Under the pieces are notes generated by a model. That model was not told the DNA's origin and made no database searches. It was given only the letters and a program-made list of their open reading frames with translations. DNA of 64,000 bases from an uncultured Candidatus Saccharibacteria bacterium (GTDB taxonomy: Bacteria > Patescibacteriota > CAZHWT01), in contig CAZKPX010000001.1 of the NCBI GenBank assembly GCA_964554805.1, positions 48,245 through 112,244 on the forward strand, written 5' to 3'. Shown one piece after another: positions 3,047 through 49,238 of this stretch. The stretch's first letter is position 1. Each line of letters opens with the position of its first letter. The translations under genes and the position numbers were made by a program.

Positions 3047-3740
3047 TCCGAATGCTGCCGTCCAAAAGTGTATCTAATGATTGGCCGTAAGCGGTAAATG
3101 TGCCGCCGTTGAGGGCTAGCTTGAGGGTGCCGTCTTCAACTGCACCATTGGCTAGCCTGGCACTGCCGGCCGGCAGCCAACTGCCGCTGCTGACGTACTG
3201 GTCTCCACCGACAACTAAGACTCCTGTTCCGGTGCCGCCCTGTGTGCCAAAGTCAAAGCTGTGATTGGCATTCTGCCATGATCCGTAACCAAATACGTAA
3301 CTCCAGCCGGATGGATCGTCATTAGAGGCGACCACAAAAATAGAGCGGTCACTGGTGCTGGCTGGCAGATTTGTATCAACGGCCTCATAGCGATTATTGG
3401 GATTGAACTGTAGGGCAGGATTGAAGTTTAGGCCGTCATGACTGAAGATGGCTCCTTGGGCCGTTTCTTGGGCGGCATTCCGTTGAGCGTTGGACTGGTC
3501 TTCCCAGGAAGCCACTTGCTGACCGTTGGTTGCCGCTGCACCTCCGCTTGCTTTGGCCCCGTGATCTGCGCTCAGCCACAGCTGTAGCCCAGAGGTGACT
3601 CCAGCCGGCCCGATTGTATCCGCTTCGACCTTACTAAAGTCCAGGACTGATAATTTGCTCAAGCAGGCCACGATCAGCAAGCTGCTGGCAAGAGAGACAA
3701 TCAGCACTAACAGGCGCGATGATTTCAAAGACGATTGCAT
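2982..3740 (-). CDS. N-terminal fragment of the surface protein (signal peptide and start of a LamG-like domain).
   Basis: Hydrophobic N-terminal signal sequence and a Gly/Ser-rich beta-rich domain. It ends within the LamG C-terminal motif because of the frameshift. Confidence 0.5.
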   Translation of the reverse strand: MQSSLKSSRLLVLIVSLASSLLIVACLSKLSVLDFSKVEADTIGPAGVTSGLQLWLSADHGAKASGGAAATNGQQVASWEDQSNAQRNAAQETAQGAIFSHDGLNFNPALQFNPNNRYEAVDTNLPASTSDRSIFVVASNDDPSGWSYVFGYGSWQNANHSFDFGTQGGTGTGVLVVGGDQYVSSGSWLPAGSARLANGAVEDGTLKLALNGGTFTAYGQSLDTLLDGSIRIGSQSGEYEHWNGKISENYHL

Positions 3741-26545: not shown

Positions 26546-27955
26546 CTAAGCGCCTCCCTGTTGGACTTGAGGGGTTGATTTGACCGGACGATTTGTGCCG
26601 TAGCCAGGGATTTTGACTCCGGATTTGGTTGGCGAGGATGGGCCGCCGTACATGGTACGAAGCAAGGTTCGACTGACGACAACAGCGGTGAACATTGATA
26701 CCAGCACGCCTAAGCCGAGAGTTAGGGCGAATCCACGAACCATGCCGGTACCGAATAAGTATAATATAACACAGGTTATGAGTGAGGATACATTGGAATC
26801 ACGAATTGACGGCCAGGCTCGATTAAAACCTATCTCGATGGCGGCGCGGAACTTATTGCCTCGTCGAATTTCTTCTCTCATTCGTTCAAAGATTAAGATG
26901 TTGGCATCCACAGCCATACCGATAGCCAGAATAAAACCAGCTACACCGGCCATAGTTAAGGTAATTGGAATGAGTTTGACTAAGGCTAGGTTAAATAAGG
27001 TATACAAGATGAGCGCGATATTGGCAACGAGGCCTAGCTTGCCATAGTTGAGCACCATGAAGATCATAACTAAAAGCAAACCAACAGCTCCAGCAACAAT
27101 GCTTTGATTAATTGATGCCTGGCCCAATGTAGCCCCAATGGTGCGCTGCTCTACTACAGAGATTGGTACTGGCAATGCTCCGGCTGATAGCTGAGATGCC
27201 AACTGTTTGGCCGTTTGGATTGTAAATCCGCCATTGACCACAGCTCGGCCATCCAGAATGGCTGTTTGAACATTTGGGGCAGCCACAGCCATGCCATCAA
27301 GGAAGATGACTAAAGGCTGACCAACCAATCTGCTGGTTAAATCAGCAAATTTTGTCTTGCCTTCATCAGTAAAGACTATGGCTACCATTGGCTCTGTGCC
27401 TTGAGTGGTATCTACTGTTGCACTATCTAGATCACTGCCGCTCAGCCCCGTGGCTATGGTATTTTCTAGGGTGGGATAGGTGTTGGCTGCATTGGCAGGA
27501 TCTGCAGACTCGCGGAACTCGAGCTTGGCGGTTTGACCAACTAAGGCTACTGCTTGAGCGGTATCTGTTACTCCTGGTAGTTCAACAATTACCCGATAAT
27601 CATCGCCTGCTCTGGCTGGTTGGACTACAGCTTCGGTGGCGCCGGTGAAATTGACGCGATTTTCTAAGACAGTAACCGCAGCGTCAGAGGCAGCCTGTCG
27701 ATCGGAAGCGTCGATATCTGTCATATCAAGGCTTAGCACTACCTGGGTGCCACCTTGCAAATCTAGGCCCTGACGGACATTTATTTCTTTAAAAATCGGC
27801 CAGCCTATCCCTGATAAGTCCAAGTTGGGACTTTGGATGGTTTGGTTGACTTTCCATGACCCTATCTGAAAATTGAGAGGGATATTGGGAATATCAATAA
27901 CGAGGGCTACTAATGTTAGAGCCACGATGGCCCACAAGGTTTTGCGTGTATTCAT
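26546..27955 (-). CDS. secD: Protein-export membrane protein SecD.
   Basis: N-terminal TM, periplasmic domain and a C-terminal six-TM core with SecD motifs. Confidence 0.85.
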   Translation of the reverse strand: MNTRKTLWAIVALTLVALVIDIPNIPLNFQIGSWKVNQTIQSPNLDLSGIGWPIFKEINVRQGLDLQGGTQVVLSLDMTDIDASDRQAASDAAVTVLENRVNFTGATEAVVQPARAGDDYRVIVELPGVTDTAQAVALVGQTAKLEFRESADPANAANTYPTLENTIATGLSGSDLDSATVDTTQGTEPMVAIVFTDEGKTKFADLTSRLVGQPLVIFLDGMAVAAPNVQTAILDGRAVVNGGFTIQTAKQLASQLSAGALPVPISVVEQRTIGATLGQASINQSIVAGAVGLLLVMIFMVLNYGKLGLVANIALILYTLFNLALVKLIPITLTMAGVAGFILAIGMAVDANILIFERMREEIRRGNKFRAAIEIGFNRAWPSIRDSNVSSLITCVILYLFGTGMVRGFALTLGLGVLVSMFTAVVVSRTLLRTMYGGPSSPTKSGVKIPGYGTNRPVKSTPQVQQGGA

Positions 27956-28018: not shown

Positions 28019-28396
28019 TTATTTGATGGGGCTACTGCCAGACGACTGGTAGAGAACCTTGCCCTCTTCAAGTATGTCTTGGATAAAACCGTCTCCTTGT
28101 CGTTGCAGCAGCTCTACTTCTTCTGGAGTGTAAACTAAGGGGGCAATATTAGGCAAGACATCGGAAGTAACTGCAATGGCTTTTTTGATTCGCTGTAGAA
28201 ATCGCGTTCCACCAACAGACTCAGTGACGATTAAGACATCGACACTAGATTCCGGGCGCGCATGGCCTCGAGTCAGACTTCCAAATAGATAAATACTATC
28301 CGGCTTGAATTCGGCAATTAACTTATTGACGGCGTCGTCGAGCTGTTGACGAAACGCTGCACCTGTTGATAAATATCGACTGCTTCGGCTAGACAT
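28019..28396 (-). CDS. Minimal nucleotidyltransferase (MNT) of a HEPN/MNT toxin-antitoxin pair.
   Basis: IYLFGSLTRGHARPESSVDVLIV is the GS...D.D polymerase-beta nucleotidyltransferase motif. It overlaps the HEPN gene 3' end, so the start is uncertain. Confidence 0.65.
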   Translation of the reverse strand: MSSRSSRYLSTGAAFRQQLDDAVNKLIAEFKPDSIYLFGSLTRGHARPESSVDVLIVTESVGGTRFLQRIKKAIAVTSDVLPNIAPLVYTPEEVELLQRQGDGFIQDILEEGKVLYQSSGSSPIK

Positions 28397-28752
28397 TCTT
28401 CAGCATCCTCCTTTTCTATAAATTCATGTGGACTTACTTTTTCGGCTGGAATAGCAAATGGATACCGGGAAACAAAGGTGGCTGCCTCTAGTGAGGAGAC
28501 CGAGACCCTGACTTGATCGCGAACCCTGTCATCCAGATGATTGGCCAACCCTAATAATCCACCCAAACGGTGACCTCGAGGAGCGATGCCATCCAGATGG
28601 ATGAGCAGCCCCTTCAGTGCTTTCTCGGCTGACTGTTGAGCTTGAAAACTAGCCCATTCAAAATAGCCATGATCCATGCTGAGTCGGGCTGCTTCCAGAT
28701 CAAATCCCGATTGCTTCATCCACGCTTCGAATTTGGCTCGTTTGTTTACCAT
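28318..28752 (-). CDS. HEPN-domain protein, partner of the MNT.
   Basis: The HEPN helix AEKALKGLLIHLDGIAPRGHRLGGLLGL contains the R-x4-6-H-like motif. Its start abuts the stop of the upstream wHTH gene. Confidence 0.65.
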   Translation of the reverse strand: MVNKRAKFEAWMKQSGFDLEAARLSMDHGYFEWASFQAQQSAEKALKGLLIHLDGIAPRGHRLGGLLGLANHLDDRVRDQVRVSVSSLEAATFVSRYPFAIPAEKVSPHEFIEKEDAEECLAEAVDIYQQVQRFVNSSTTPSIS

Positions 28753-29360
28753 TAGCGCTCCATTTTAACGAATTCTTCTTCATCGCCAATGAGGTTAATC
28801 CAGGTTTGCTGCATAAATCCAGTCAAAAATGGATCGCGGCGGCTTTTGCGGAACTGGAACTCCTCTTCGGTCATGATGGTGTAATTTATCTCATGGCCAT
28901 GACGCTGCTGCGACTCTTTGACTAAATCAGAAAGAGCGGTGCTATTTAAACGTCCTACAAGGAGTAGGTCTACTTCGTGTTGGCGAGCAACGCGACCTTT
29001 GACAAATGCTGCGGATAAGACGGCGTGTTTGACTTTGCCTAGTTCATTGGCATGCTGAACAATATCCCCGCCTAAATCAGTGGTCTTGGCGAACATACGC
29101 AGCAATTCGGGATAGAATGAAAAGTCGGTCCGCAGTTGGTAATAGAGCCTGTTGGCTCGTTCCTCTGACCGCAACAAGCCGATCTTGTGAAGTCGTGTTA
29201 ATTCTCGACGGACAGCGTTTACTTCTTCGTCAACCAAGCGAACGAGTTCTCGGACATACAAGAGAGAGCCAGGATTGATCAGGAAGACTTGAAGCAGCTT
29301 GAGCCTGACCTTGGAGATGAAGAGTGCTTCAAGTGATTTATTGAGAGGAGATGTGGACAT
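28752..29360 (-). CDS. wHTH transcriptional-regulator-like protein with a degenerate nucleotidyltransferase-like C-terminal region.
   Basis: N-terminal ArsR-like wHTH (LYVRELVRLVDEEVNAVRRELTRLHKIGLL). The C-terminus (AAFVKGRVARQHEVDLLLVG) lacks the GS motif. Confidence 0.45.
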   Translation of the reverse strand: MSTSPLNKSLEALFISKVRLKLLQVFLINPGSLLYVRELVRLVDEEVNAVRRELTRLHKIGLLRSEERANRLYYQLRTDFSFYPELLRMFAKTTDLGGDIVQHANELGKVKHAVLSAAFVKGRVARQHEVDLLLVGRLNSTALSDLVKESQQRHGHEINYTIMTEEEFQFRKSRRDPFLTGFMQQTWINLIGDEEEFVKMER

Positions 29361-29529
29361 AGATTGCGTAAATACCTTTTTATTGCCTAGCGATGAGTAA
29401 TTATTATACTCTTATTTTTACTTGATTTATGGCTTGCCTGTCAATGATAACCTAAACTAGAAGGCGGAAACAAGAAGTTGCCTGCATGCAGTTGCTTACT
29501 TACTATGCTCATGTCCTATCTTTGACCGG

Positions 29530-29564
29530 TTGACGAGCACCGCAATGGACTATAGAATACTGAC
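29530..29564 (+). promoter_or_regulatory. Promoter TTGACG-17-TAGAAT with the ATG 6 nt downstream (leaderless).
   Basis: ggTTGACG-agcaccgcaatggacta-TAGAAT-actgac-ATG. Confidence 0.4.
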
Positions 29565-29894
29565 ATGCCTCAGGTACGAAAAACACGACAACAAAAAGTA
29601 CAGCACCGTCAACGTCAGGCCGCTACCCCTTCTCGAGATGCAGGGGCAGTCGATGCAGTGCCGGTGTCGAATAACGCTATTATCGCTAATGAATTAGCCA
29701 AGCCTAACCTGGCTATTGATGCTCATATTCAAGCTACATATACATACGCTTGGGAAGAACTACGCCGGATCGGCTGGATTAGTTTGGTGTGTCTAGGACT
29801 GCTGCTTGTAGCTAGCCTACTGTTGTCTGAGATCCCGGCTATAGTTGAGCTGCGGAACACTCTCAGTTTGCCAAATCTGTCACCGTTTAATTAA
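29565..29894 (+). CDS. Hypothetical protein with a C-terminal TM segment.
   Basis: 109 aa with a basic N-terminus and a hydrophobic C-terminus. Confidence 0.4.
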   Translation: MPQVRKTRQQKVQHRQRQAATPSRDAGAVDAVPVSNNAIIANELAKPNLAIDAHIQATYTYAWEELRRIGWISLVCLGLLLVASLLLSEIPAIVELRNTLSLPNLSPFN

Positions 29895-30530
29895 ATTTTT
29901 TAAAAGCTGTTGTATTTGCATTGAGTTTGTAAAGCCAGCCTGACGGGCTTCGCTTTCAGTGCAATACCACGATATAAGCTTGGTGTTGTTCTTGAATTTT
30001 TCCAGATACGATTGATATAAATCCTTATGCAAGGGGGTAAAGTAGACCTTGGCGCTACTTAAGCTAATGCCGAAGATTTTCTTGATCTGGCTTCCACTAA
30101 ATTGACATTTAACTGCTGGTTGTGACGGAGCTTGAGGACTAACAGCAGGAGGCTGATTCACGTCCTTTGGGTTTGTGTTGAGGATGGCTGACGCTGACCC
30201 ACCTGACAATGGCTGCTCGGCGTCCTGAACTGATTGAACGCTTGGTGGCTGATTATCATCCAGCTGAGCGGACTCGGATGCAGATTGGGAGGAATTCGGT
30301 ATAGCGATTGACGCGGAATCAGTAGCTTGGGCACCAAGCAAGGGCGTTGATTCTTGGCTATAGTCTTGGTTATAGCTATCAAGTTGAATCTTAGGTGAAA
30401 AAATATAAGAAATGACCATGACTATAAAAAGTCCGGCAAAGGCGCTAATGGTTAGCCATTTCAATTTATTAGGTAAGAGCTCACTTGATGGAGACATATT
30501 TCCTATTTTGACTTGGAACTTGATACTCAT
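29880..30530 (-). CDS. Membrane-anchored Ser/Pro/Gln-rich hypothetical protein.
   Basis: N-terminal TM segment, low-complexity middle and a conserved-looking C-terminus (WYCTESEARQAGF). Confidence 0.4.
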   Translation of the reverse strand: MSIKFQVKIGNMSPSSELLPNKLKWLTISAFAGLFIVMVISYIFSPKIQLDSYNQDYSQESTPLLGAQATDSASIAIPNSSQSASESAQLDDNQPPSVQSVQDAEQPLSGGSASAILNTNPKDVNQPPAVSPQAPSQPAVKCQFSGSQIKKIFGISLSSAKVYFTPLHKDLYQSYLEKFKNNTKLISWYCTESEARQAGFTNSMQIQQLLKNLIKR

Positions 30531-30701: not shown

Positions 30702-32225
30702 ATGCTGGCGAATGTTATGACAGGGGCCATTTGCGGCCTGGAATCTGTGCCGGTGACTGTGGAAGTGGATGTGGCTAAGCAATCATTCCCCGGATTTACG
30801 ATGGTAGGCTTGCCCGATAAATCCACCGATGAGGCAAAAGAACGCGTTAGGTCGGCACTTTACAATAGCGGAGCAACTTTTCCCCAACATCGCATTACTG
30901 TAAATTTGGCGCCGGCTGACCTACCCAAAAATGGTCCATCATTTGATTTGCCAATTGCAGTCGGCCTTCTGATAGCTTCTGGGCAAGTTAGCTGCACTAT
31001 TGAGTCATGCTGGTTCTTCGGTGAACTTTCTTTAAATGGTGGGCTACGCCCTGTAACTGGCATGCTAGCGCTGGCGGCTCTGGCTAAACAGGAAGGAGCT
31101 CGCTCATTATTTGTGCCCAAGGATAATGCTGCAGAAGCGGCTGCCATTGAAGATATGGCTGTCTATGGCATTGAAACACTAGGCCAACTTGTTCTTCATT
31201 TAACCAATACTGCACCAGCCACAGCGTATGTGTGTCAGCCATGGATGGAGGCGGTTGAAGGTTTGACTGATCAGGTTGATATGGCAGATATCCTTGGTCA
31301 AGAGCAATCAAAAAGGGCTTTGGAGATTGCTGCGGCAGGTGGGCACAATATCCTGCTGGAAGGCTTGCCGGGTAGCGGAAAAACATTGTTAGCCAAAGCG
31401 TTTGCCAGTATTTTGCCGCCGCTGACAACGGCTGAATCTCTTGAAATCAGCACTATACATAGCGTGTGCGGGCTACTTGGTACAAATCCATTGATACGCC
31501 AACGGCCATTTCGTAGCCCTCACCATACTACGAGCAGTATTGGAATGATCGGCGGAGGGAGCAATCCGAAGCCTGGTGAAGTTAGTCTGGCCCACAAAGG
31601 CGTACTTTTTCTGGATGAGTTTGCAGAGTTTCCTCGGTCGGTACTAGAGGTGCTTAGACAACCAATGGAGGATGGCTTGGTTACTGTTAGCCGCGCCAAA
31701 GCTAGCTACACTTTCCCGGCACGGTTTCAGCTGCTCGCTGCCCAAAACCCCTGTCCTTGCGGGCATTTAGGCGATCCCCATCGCGATTGTCTGTGTAATC
31801 CACGGCAGATCGCTCTGTATCGCAAGCGTGTTTCCGGACCGCTGCTGGACCGCATTGATTTGTTTGTCAAAGTTCCCCGAGTTGATGATAAGCATTTTGC
31901 TCATTTGGGACAAAGTACGGCTGAAAGCTCGGCTAGTATCAGGCAAAGAGTTGCGGCTGCTCGGGCTATCCAGCTTGAGAGATTGCAATCGACCAGACTA
32001 ACTAGCAATGCCGAAATGTCGACTAATCAGCTTAAGGTTTGGTGCAAGATGGGACCGATGCAGACTGAACTACTTCAAAAAGCCAGCCAGAAGTTGCAGC
32101 TGTCCGCTCGATCATATTTCCGAGTCATGAGGTTGTCGCGGACTATTGCTGACTTGGCTGGTAGTGCTGAGATTGAAACGGCTCATATTGCTGAGGCTTT
32201 GCAGTATAGGAGAACTGAGAACTAG
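30702..32225 (+). CDS. comM: YifB/ComM family Mg-chelatase-like AAA+ ATPase.
   Basis: N-terminal ChlI-like domain (VEVDV...GFTMVGLPD), Walker A GLPGSGKT and a C-terminal Mg-chelatase domain. Confidence 0.8.
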   Translation: MLANVMTGAICGLESVPVTVEVDVAKQSFPGFTMVGLPDKSTDEAKERVRSALYNSGATFPQHRITVNLAPADLPKNGPSFDLPIAVGLLIASGQVSCTIESCWFFGELSLNGGLRPVTGMLALAALAKQEGARSLFVPKDNAAEAAAIEDMAVYGIETLGQLVLHLTNTAPATAYVCQPWMEAVEGLTDQVDMADILGQEQSKRALEIAAAGGHNILLEGLPGSGKTLLAKAFASILPPLTTAESLEISTIHSVCGLLGTNPLIRQRPFRSPHHTTSSIGMIGGGSNPKPGEVSLAHKGVLFLDEFAEFPRSVLEVLRQPMEDGLVTVSRAKASYTFPARFQLLAAQNPCPCGHLGDPHRDCLCNPRQIALYRKRVSGPLLDRIDLFVKVPRVDDKHFAHLGQSTAESSASIRQRVAAARAIQLERLQSTRLTSNAEMSTNQLKVWCKMGPMQTELLQKASQKLQLSARSYFRVMRLSRTIADLAGSAEIETAHIAEALQYRRTEN

Positions 32226-46922: not shown

Positions 46923-48446
46923 CTAGTCCCAGTTGGAGTTGGTGGGCGGGTGGAAGTTTGGGTCTACTTGGAGCTGTTGTTGATTTAATAGTAGCTGCTC
47001 TTGGGTTCTGCTCCAGTTCCATGACTGCCAGGATGACTGATTTTTGCCTTTGACAGAACTGTACTGGTTTAAATCCATTTGGAGATAAAATGCTGTGCTT
47101 TGGGCTAAAAGCTGATCTTCATCATCAAGAAGTGGAATGAGAGCTGGGGTAGCGTCGGCTGAGAGGCTGGCAAGATGAACAAGATCGATTTTGCCAGTTT
47201 GGTGATAGCGTTGGATATTCTGCTGGGCAATGAAAGCTTCTGGGTTGAGTAGGTTGAGAGCGATGACTATCACAACCGTCGAGCTGATGAGTGAAGGACC
47301 GACAATTATTGCTGGTAGTTGCTTGACTATCTGCATGAAGATGATTATGAGGACAGAGCATAACCAGGCGGCAAAGGCATAAGCCAAAAGTCTGGTGACA
47401 GTGAAACCATAGGCTTGCTCATAGAGCCACAGTCTATTGATAGCTGAGGCAAGAACGACTAAAACAAGAATAATCAGACTGGATCCTAGGCGAGCTTGCC
47501 ATGATTTGAGACCTTGTGAAGCCAGATGAGGCTTGGTTAGCCAAAGTACGCCTACGGCGATGAGGGCTGTCCAGATTAATTCGTTGAAACCGCTGCGAGC
47601 GTAATCAGCATAGGTGATGGCACTAGATTCAAGATAGGCTTGTCCGCCAAAGAGGTAGACTGACTGGAATAGCAGATAGAGCAAGAAAACTCCATTGATA
47701 ACGGTCAATACTATCTGTGATTCAGTTTGACCAATAATGGTTTTGTCCTGATGGCTATAGGCAAAGGACTGACCTTTGCGGACTATGAAGGAGAAGGCTG
47801 CGGCGAAAAATCCTGCTACGAATAGGATCATCAATATGATAGTAAACCAACCACCTTGCATTAGGCTGAGTGGATTGAATATGTTGTTTAGAAAAGAGCC
47901 GAGAGCTGGGTCAGCCCGAGAAAATAGAGCTAGCAGTACGCCAGCGATAGGCAGGGCAATCATCAGGCCGCGAATGATGGAACTAGCGCTGGAGATCTTG
48001 GCTTGGGGTTTGGTAATAGCTTGGGACAGGGTTTGAAAGAAAGGAACTATCCACCATAAAGGCAAAAATGCTACTAAGAAGTACCCTTGTGGTGGCATAA
48101 AAATTGAGCGTTTGGATAATCGCCAGACTGTTAAGAGCCCTAAACCGAAGAGCACCATCAGATTTAGCACGGCCATAAAATTGCTGGCTCGCCAAACAAG
48201 CATAAAAACCAAGTAAGCTGCTATGCCGATGATCATCCAGACTGATTTGGGCCAGCTATTGTTGAAGTCCCGGCTGGTAATCAACCAGGTTGCTGCAATC
48301 ACAATTGCCAAATAAACCAGGCTAGATAGACCAATGCCTTGATTCCAGAAACAAATATAGAACGCAAACCCAAGCAATGCGCCTACGGCTAGAATTGTTT
48401 GGGATTTGGCTTGAATATTGATGGGTGTATTTGGCTGATGATTCAT
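46923..48446 (-). CDS. Large polytopic membrane protein, uncharacterized (DUF4153/4173-like).
   Basis: 507 aa with more than 10 TM helices and a C-terminal soluble tail. Confidence 0.45.
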   Translation of the reverse strand: MNHQPNTPINIQAKSQTILAVGALLGFAFYICFWNQGIGLSSLVYLAIVIAATWLITSRDFNNSWPKSVWMIIGIAAYLVFMLVWRASNFMAVLNLMVLFGLGLLTVWRLSKRSIFMPPQGYFLVAFLPLWWIVPFFQTLSQAITKPQAKISSASSIIRGLMIALPIAGVLLALFSRADPALGSFLNNIFNPLSLMQGGWFTIILMILFVAGFFAAAFSFIVRKGQSFAYSHQDKTIIGQTESQIVLTVINGVFLLYLLFQSVYLFGGQAYLESSAITYADYARSGFNELIWTALIAVGVLWLTKPHLASQGLKSWQARLGSSLIILVLVVLASAINRLWLYEQAYGFTVTRLLAYAFAAWLCSVLIIIFMQIVKQLPAIIVGPSLISSTVVIVIALNLLNPEAFIAQQNIQRYHQTGKIDLVHLASLSADATPALIPLLDDEDQLLAQSTAFYLQMDLNQYSSVKGKNQSSWQSWNWSRTQEQLLLNQQQLQVDPNFHPPTNSNWD

Positions 48447-49161: not shown

Positions 49162-49238
49162 TGGTCGGGGTGAGAGGACTTGAACCTCCGGCCTCTAGTA
49201 CCCCATACTAGCGCGCTAGCCAACTGCGCCACACCCCG
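49162..49238 (-). tRNA. tRNA-Pro (anticodon GGG).
   Basis: CGGGGTGTGGCGCAGTTGGCTAGCGCGCTAGTATGGGGTACTAGAGGCCGGAGGTTCAAGTCCTCTCACCCCGACCA. It has a 7-bp acceptor stem, D and T arms, anticodon loop aT-GGG-gT and an encoded CCA. Confidence 0.8.

Follow-up and report, generated by a model that had tools for sequence, protein, structure and literature searches.

The window analysed here is a 64,000-nucleotide stretch (positions 48,245 to 112,244 of the forward strand) of contig CAZKPX010000001.1, from an uncultured Candidatus Saccharibacteria bacterium (assembly GCA_964554805.1), and on its minus strand it carries three overlapping genes followed by secD: a gene that we call gene A, a HEPN gene and a gene for a minimal nucleotidyltransferase (MNT). 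The first-pass annotation of the window had proposed a three-gene operon at this place, a layout that was borne out, and the three minus-strand open reading frames (ORFs) and the features around them are as follows.

28752..29360, minus strand: gene A, 202 aa, encoding an ArsR-like winged helix-turn-helix (wHTH) domain and a degenerate nucleotidyltransferase (NTase)-fold domain
28750..28766, minus strand: A/HEPN junction, with GGAG within the final codons of A (AAA ATG GAG CGC TAA) and then TAATG, as read from the sequence
28318..28752, minus strand: HEPN gene, 144 aa, PF05168 / HEPN-T class
28019..28396, minus strand: MNT gene, 125 aa, a minimal NTase, PF01909/PF18765
27956..28018, minus strand: spacer between MNT and secD, 63 nt
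26546..27955, minus strand: secD, the conserved neighbour downstream of gene A
29361..29564, minus strand: 5′ region of the operon, in which a -35-like TTGACA is conserved at 29445..29440

The stop codon of A and the start codon of HEPN have one base in common (TAATG), and HEPN and MNT overlap in different frames by 79 nt (28318..28396). The contact between A and HEPN thus stands as first described, while the second overlap, put earlier at about 78 nt, is one nucleotide longer. In the Patescibacteria clade to which the window belongs, the A/HEPN junction reads TAATG in the window and in the related loci L081, L083 and L146, TAGTG in L082, and has a 5-nt gap in L147; each of the six clade sequences has GGAG 5-10 nt ahead of the start codon of HEPN. 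The A proteins of this clade end in a C-terminal tail of 3-5 aa (K-M/L-E-R/K) that is missing from solo A proteins. L146, located through its identical HEPN (P0121) and not through an exact look-up of A in the contig index, which gave no match, is identical in sequence to the window. Comparisons between clade members showed that the proportion of nonsynonymous differences (pN) is far below that of synonymous differences (pS) for A, HEPN and MNT alike, the pN/pS values between the window and L081 being 0.05/0.79 for A, 0.08/0.66 for HEPN and 0.11/0.69 for MNT. Thus, A, HEPN and the overlapping MNT are real genes; the possibility that MNT is a spurious overlap ORF was ruled out by this low pN, by its Pfam matches and by its conservation in 16 clade sequences. 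Downstream, Pfam SecD domains lie on the gene equivalent to secD in L081, L082, L146 and L147. A terminator scan of the 63-nt spacer found no terminator-like site, the promoter and terminator scans as such giving no more hits than shuffled sequence did, and transcription thus probably reaches secD. Upstream of A, the TTGACA hexamer is perfect in all four aligned sequences (the window, L081, L082 and L147) and is followed 17-18 nt further on by an A/T-rich hexamer, so we infer that it is a putative promoter element; a consensus promoter scan did not flag it, and promoter-like matches there were not above shuffle background. Rfam gave no match in or near the A-HEPN-MNT locus.

The context of gene A was counted in 148 A-family loci, sorted by what comes after A. 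The results showed that secD lies within 200 nt downstream of A, with neither HEPN nor MNT, in 101 loci, that a PF04014 MazE/AbrB-like gene of about 60-75 aa occupies the A–secD gap in 21, and that HEPN and MNT occupy it in 5, all of them from the window's clade (A 78-92% identical); the remaining loci differ or are truncated. Altogether, neither HEPN nor MNT accompanies A in about 143 of the 148 loci, where the C-domain motifs are the same. A MazE/AbrB-like gene also follows A in L151, whose A is the nearest outgroup (58% identity), and upstream of A most loci have DUF4446 and DUF3048 genes. Given that A mostly stands solo before secD, it is not a dedicated partner of HEPN-MNT, and the earlier suggestion of a dedicated third component has to be given up. 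Rather, A is a conserved gene of Patescibacteria that is linked to secD, and what fills the slot on its 3′ side varies. Relatives of A are numerous, with at least 547 coding stretches among GTDB species genomes; of the 80 loci retained, most bear the names of Patescibacteria or Microgenomates-type candidate phyla, and many others have generic 'uncultured' binning labels. In a representative library, which informs on family size only and carries no genomic context, A matched 6527 clusters at E≤1e-3, of which 356 reached E≤1e-30.

The MazE/AbrB-like PF04014 gene (60-75 aa) is a separate occupant of this slot. It abuts or overlaps the 3′ end of A in 24 of 149 family loci (L014 2828-3019, L022 5576-5815, L025 5555-5776, L027 5577-5765, L029 5584-5808, L059 5605-5853 and L151 4004-4255, plus 18 more loci), and in most of them secD comes next and no toxin gene was seen between. 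It resembles a lone antitoxin-like DNA-binding protein, and it sits in the slot that holds HEPN and MNT in the window.

The HEPN-MNT pair has a different distribution from that of A. The identity between HEPN homologues is 63-100% within the clade (28 sequences) and then drops straight to 38% or less outside it. All outgroup HEPNs with a readable context form HEPN-then-MNT pairs without A, with overlaps of 49-62 nt: the pair adjoins sugar-nucleotide genes in the metagenomic loci L148 and L149, lies in a Methanoplanus island rich in insertion sequence (IS) elements and VapBC/HicB genes in L150, and sits within a cobalamin operon on Thermus pTT27. A and the HEPN-MNT pair are therefore each found elsewhere without the other, and the insertion of MNT-HEPN modules into housekeeping operons has been noted before (PMC2701414). 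Within the clade, A, HEPN and MNT agree in their relationships (the window with L081, and L082 with L147), which indicates co-inheritance since a single acquisition. The evolutionary rates rise from A to HEPN to MNT, HEPN and MNT being 1.5-2 times faster than A. The parsimonious reading of these data is that a self-contained HEPN-T/MNT cassette was captured into the A–secD slot, and that the 3′ end of A was remodelled on capture, its extra tail codons giving HEPN its GGAG and the TAATG overlap. No direct or inverted flanking repeats that would mark an insertion boundary came up in a search for repeats.

The translation start signals of MNT lie within the HEPN gene. The one feature needed here is the Shine-Dalgarno (SD) sequence of MNT:

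28406..28413, minus strand: SD AAGGAGGA for MNT, inside the HEPN codons for E-K-E-D-A-E-E-C

MNT starts at the ATG at 28396, 10 nt past this SD. This is the only in-frame ATG, GTG or TTG of the MNT ORF at or before the HEPN stop, and the window has no in-frame ATG, GTG or TTG for MNT beyond that stop. A non-canonical start had been expected for MNT from the length of the overlap, but an ATG with an SD 10 nt before it is canonical. The SD and ATG sit within the HEPN codons GAA AAG GAG GAT GCT GAA GAA TGT, which encode the conserved EKEDAEEC motif, and in each of the seven loci compared GA[AG][AG]AGGAGGA precedes the MNT ATG by 10 nt, this ATG lying 58-82 nt inside the HEPN gene. In the SD region, Glu is encoded by GAG in 7/7 loci and Lys by AAG in the 6/6 loci that have Lys, while synonymous sites elsewhere are saturated. 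Among these seven are L148 and L150, the latter archaeal, which share no more than 33-38% HEPN identity with the window, and Thermus thermophilus pTT27 has a RefSeq-annotated HEPN-then-NTase pair with a 62-nt overlap and GGAGG 6 nt before the ATG. Given that the arrangement is conserved in such distant homologues, the long overlap is a conserved expression mode of this MNT subfamily and not an anomaly. Public gene calls leave MNT out in L146 (3001-3798) and L081 (3018-3819) and cut it to 69 aa in L082 (7115-7324), since its start lies 49-82 nt inside the HEPN gene, and several database entries (P0180-P0184) begin at internal Met codons. An SD and ATG within the conserved motif of HEPN thus offer a simple rule for recovering MNT in gene calling.

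The features of HEPN and MNT that bear on their activity are as follows.

28570..28572, minus strand: HEPN putative active-site residue H61
28459..28467, minus strand: HEPN putative active-site residues R96-Y97-P98
28244..28246, minus strand: MNT S51, replacing the first Asp of DxD, from PDB alignments to 1wot, HalB and HI0073

HEPN matched PF05168 with 84 bits (cutoff 22, E=1.1e-23), and its PDB sequence matches were 1wol (8.8e-15), 1ufb and 1o3u. With HEPN above the PF05168 threshold, an adjacent co-directional NTase above the Pfam thresholds and the pair present in unrelated genomes, the HEPN-MNT pair belongs to the known HEPN-T/MNT (COG2250/COG1708) kind, and the earlier assignment of HEPN and MNT to a toxin-antitoxin-type pair is upheld at family level. 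The pair shares with other modules of this kind (PF05168/COG2250 plus COG1708, for example TT_RS10235/TT_RS10240 on pTT27 of T. thermophilus HB27, and 1wol, 1ufb and 1o3u) the same Pfam families, the order of HEPN before MNT, an MNT start 49-82 nt inside the 3′ end of HEPN and preceded by an internal SD, the conserved H and R-Y-P residues, and insertion into a housekeeping operon. In contrast to those modules, two of the three catalytic carboxylates of the window's MNT are gone, the pair is fixed at a single chromosomal site across the clade where the others are patchy, and its translation is probably coupled to that of a wHTH-pseudoNTase gene lying upstream. As a separate observation on pTT27 (L156), a second HEPN-domain gene (3211-3342) lies right after the histidinol-phosphate transaminase gene that trails the HEPN-then-NTase pair, and HEPN genes thus recur within that cobalamin/histidine gene cluster.

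Across clade and outgroup HEPNs, H61, R96 and P98 are invariant and Y97 is nearly so, and in the same alignment no His follows R96 at a distance of 4-6 residues. The Rx4-6H motif, whose absence the first-pass annotation had named as something that would refute its reading, is therefore indeed missing, yet this is the norm for HEPN-T and is no proof that HEPN is inactive. The same state is on record for AF0298-like HEPN-T proteins, which lack the His of the motif and in which another conserved His, more N-terminal, may pair with the Arg as an alternative site, and non-catalytic RNA binding has been allowed for in motif-less HEPNs (Anantharaman et al., PMC3710099). HEPN gave no match in a tblastn search of phage genomes and none to PADLOC models.

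MNT matched PF18765 with 37.2 bits (cutoff 26.9) and PF01909 with 35.4 bits (cutoff 21). Its G39-S40 is kept, in G39-S40-x10-S51-V52-D53, and the position of the third carboxylate is A86. All 16 clade MNTs read ESS[VIY]D and I[A/T]PL, such that two of the three catalytic carboxylates are gone, as against SDxD in 17/17 outgroup MNTs and D/E at the third site in 13/17 of them. This loss across the clade makes nucleotidyl transfer or AMPylation by MNT unlikely, and the strong conservation of MNT in spite of it points to a binding role.

These states bear directly on the view that the genes form a classic type VII system, in which an active MNT (oligo)AMPylates the HEPN tyrosine Y97 and so switches off an RNase, and which we regard as highly improbable. 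The kept GS of MNT, the nearly invariant Y97 beside R96 and the weak NCBIfam matches of MNT to MntA and HalB would agree with it, as would the conserved Tyr of 'Class II' HEPN toxins without RX4H (Yao et al., PMC7641770). However, the MntA_antitoxin score is 29.7 bits against a cutoff of 60, and in all 16 clade MNTs Ser stands for the first Asp and Ala or Thr for the third carboxylate, when in MntA the change of DxD to ExE alone is enough to abolish adenylylation and weakens neutralisation (PMC7641770). AMPylation of HEPN by MNT, as first suggested, is thus doubtful. The type VII HepT/MntA systems (Shewanella SO_3166/SO_3165; Aphanizomenon HEPN/MNT) also differ in their toxin, which is of another HEPN family with the motif RX4HXY (defined in PMC7641770 and PMC3710099), whereas the window's HEPN is not DUF86 and lacks that motif; in their antitoxin, which has the intact GSX10DXD that the window's MNT is without; and in their order, with the antitoxin gene 5′ of the toxin gene where the window has HEPN 5′ and MNT 3′. 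The pair is therefore not of the HepT/MntA class, and the 'type VII-like' label given to it earlier does not apply to a PF05168 (HEPN-T) protein with no His 4-6 residues after R96.

For gene A, the two domains of the encoded protein are placed as follows.

29121..29339, minus strand: wHTH domain of A, about residues 8-80
28755..29114, minus strand: degenerate minimal NTase-fold domain of A, about residues 83-202

The AlphaFold2 (AF2) model of A was confident (pLDDT 90, from 78 homologues), and its wHTH has the ArsR-type fold. Against sequence models the wHTH gave sub-threshold matches only (NF033788 with 22.4 bits, cutoff 55; PF12840 with 13.2 bits, cutoff 27), so that A scores below the cutoffs for ArsR/SmtB winged-helix repressors, from which it also differs in carrying a fused NTase-fold domain. 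A Pfam search of A gave no NTase match and a PDB sequence search gave insignificant matches only; with hhalign, the NTase-like domain was related to the MNT family at 94.3% probability. The GS motif is missing, the window having A117-A118 and S-A-A...H-E-V-D at the catalytic positions. Across the family (147 loci) the G of GS is G, T or A and the S is K or R, the DxD position is [E/D]x[D/Y], Tyr taking the place of the second Asp in 55 loci, and a near-invariant Asn lines up with the third carboxylate of MNT. The architecture first proposed for A, a wHTH joined to a GS-less NTase-like domain, is thus correct and is true of the whole family.

The closest named relative of A is PADLOC PDC-M05A (PDLC04368), which it matched at E=3.6e-34 with residues 8-199 on profile positions 4-197 of 201. 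PDC-M05A is a candidate defence component with no experimental validation (PMC12988326). With PDC-M05 (M05A plus M05B; Legionella, Burkholderia and Comamonas plasmids) A shares the full-length M05A profile match, the joining of a wHTH to an NTase, and a small, overlapping gene for a helical protein that comes next, as it does after M05A. In contrast, genuine M05A proteins of proteobacterial plasmids match the profile at 1e-50 to 1e-81 and keep FGS or YGS...SDIDL or SDIDV with Pfam NTase matches, where A has neither (SAA...HEVDL); PDC-M05 pairs with M05B, whereas the window's HEPN is not M05B and most A genes are partner-less; and PDC-M05 lies in a defence island or on a plasmid, where the context of A is secD. 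A is on these grounds of sequence a degenerate relative of PDC-M05A with no M05B partner. A pairing of A and HEPN as PDC-M05 was rejected, since HEPN matches no PADLOC model and its family is unrelated to M05B (hhalign 4% probability). Because M05A-like genes are widespread, partner-less, catalytically degenerate and secD-linked in Patescibacteria, PADLOC PDC-M05A matches there are not to be taken as defence genes.

The genuine PDC-M05B partners themselves (L152 3069-3518, L153 3129-3512 and L155 2940-3377, on Burkholderia, Comamonas and Legionella plasmids) match nothing in Pfam and share an invariant G-H-H and R-x-x-R-N-x-x-D-Y-x-G-D, which is HEPN-like with Tyr at the His position. In the Legionella M05 pair, a gene of the aminoglycoside adenylyltransferase family comes next.

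The homology with M05A is also one ground for an integrated three-component system, in which the pseudo-NTase domain of A would dock on HEPN as MNT or M05A does, A would be a dedicated regulator, a co-antitoxin or a decoy, and repression of the promoter would be tuned by the occupancy of HEPN or of MNT. A DNA-binding third component of MNT-HEPN systems was speculated on by Makarova et al. (PMC2701414), and several features would suit it here: the stop/start coupling of A and HEPN, with a clade-specific A tail that supplies the SD of HEPN; the full-length homology of A to M05A, behind whose genuine members comes an overlapping gene for M05B, a protein described as having a HEPN domain; and the loss of catalytic residues in MNT solely in the clade where MNT neighbours A. 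We nevertheless regard such a system as unlikely, given that about 143 of the 148 A loci lack both HEPN and MNT and show the same C-domain motifs, that HEPN has no relation to M05B and no PADLOC match, that HEPN-then-MNT pairs exist as units without A elsewhere, and that no M05B-like ORF was found in the window or in the 151 loci examined, nor in any A locus. The pseudo-NTase domain of A may still act physically on HEPN, as a decoy would, though none of the results supports it.

Given the gene structure, the homologies, the states of the motifs, the distribution across loci and the selection on all three genes, we consider it fairly probable that the locus holds a captured HEPN-T/MNT cassette, co-expressed with A and secD, in which HEPN is neutralised by MNT binding and A acts as a regulator. 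In this account, a mobile two-gene cassette of HEPN-T followed by MNT would have entered the A–secD slot in an ancestor of the Patescibacteria clade. Transcription would start upstream of A and probably run through HEPN and MNT into secD, giving an A-HEPN-MNT-secD unit, within which the translation of HEPN would be coupled to the termination of A by the GGAG in the extended tail of A and the TAATG that follows, and MNT would be translated from the ATG 79 nt inside HEPN, off the SD in the EKEDAEEC codons. HEPN most likely acts on RNA, by binding or by cleavage, through the alternative H61/R96 site. The pseudo-MNT most likely holds HEPN in check by stoichiometric binding rather than AMPylation, since it has lost two of its three metal-binding carboxylates, and A would be the DNA-binding wHTH regulator of the unit. 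Four points weigh against this account. The tight coupling of A and HEPN, together with the homology of A to M05A, which does pair with a partner of HEPN type, leaves room for a direct A-HEPN interaction. Insertion, as opposed to ancestral presence with loss, is decided by parsimony and not by a rooted tree. The hidden Markov model (HMM) used to search for HEPN was built from this subfamily only, such that it could overlook a highly divergent HEPN beside other A genes, although A abuts secD in most loci, which leaves no room for an overlooked divergent HEPN. Finally, stable retention at a single locus, with synonymous sites saturated, and the catalytic loss of MNT mean that the pair could be a toxin-antitoxin no longer.

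This last point leads to the proposal of a domesticated, non-toxic pair, with HEPN and the pseudo-MNT serving as an RNA-binding or regulatory accessory of an A-secD-secF operon. Such a role would be in keeping with vertical inheritance at one locus, where synonymous divergence (dS) is saturated and the relationships are the same as those of A, with a housekeeping context that has no defence or mobile genes nearby, and with the non-catalytic RNA binding allowed for in motif-less HEPNs (Anantharaman et al., PMC3710099), the window's HEPN having no canonical RNase motif and its MNT having lost its catalytic residues. However, the H61/R96 site is invariant both in the clade and in the mobile outgroups, which suggests that the ancestral activity of HEPN has probably been kept, and the 1.5-2 times faster evolution of HEPN and MNT than of A is usual for toxin-antitoxin genes. 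In addition, nothing ties the pair to Sec function, and we judge its domestication improbable. A further form of it, to which we give a slim chance, has a formerly mobile HEPN toxin, now domesticated, held between two NTase-fold pseudoenzymes, the wHTH-fused domain of A and the decayed MNT, in a three-protein complex that would couple promoter binding by A, and with it the expression of secD-secF, to the state of HEPN; if this were true, it would be a regulatory use of toxin-antitoxin parts undescribed for HEPN/MNT systems.

Turning back to the captured cassette, the clade's MNT, decayed yet under purifying selection, is a natural test of whether HEPN-T/MNT neutralisation needs nucleotidyl transfer or binding alone. 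Three aspects of the locus appear to be new, namely the fixed A-HEPN-MNT-secD order, the decay of the MNT active site across the clade, and the partner-less, secD-linked state of M05A-like genes in Patescibacteria; the overall picture of HEPN/MNT biology is unchanged by these results.

Several other genes around the locus were noted. Directly downstream of secD, the window encodes a conserved protein with no Pfam match (25453-26682, minus strand), which lies ahead of secF in related loci and is also present in Microgenomates loci (L005 6947-7894; L019 6913-7860). It has a C-terminal '...GKxFGGSPEVM...' motif and is about 316 aa long in related loci, the identical gene being called at 360 aa in L146; the TTG start listed for it in the window, which gives an overlap of 137 nt with secD, has probably been placed too far upstream. 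On the other side, two ORFs without a Pfam match, of 109 aa (29565-29894, plus strand) and 216 aa (29880-30530, minus strand), lie between A and a ComM/YifB-like Mg-chelatase gene (30702-32225); both are called in L146, and they stand where most Microgenomates loci have DUF4446-DUF3048 before A. The only Rfam match above the gathering score in the 64-kb window is one tRNA (49165-49238, minus strand).

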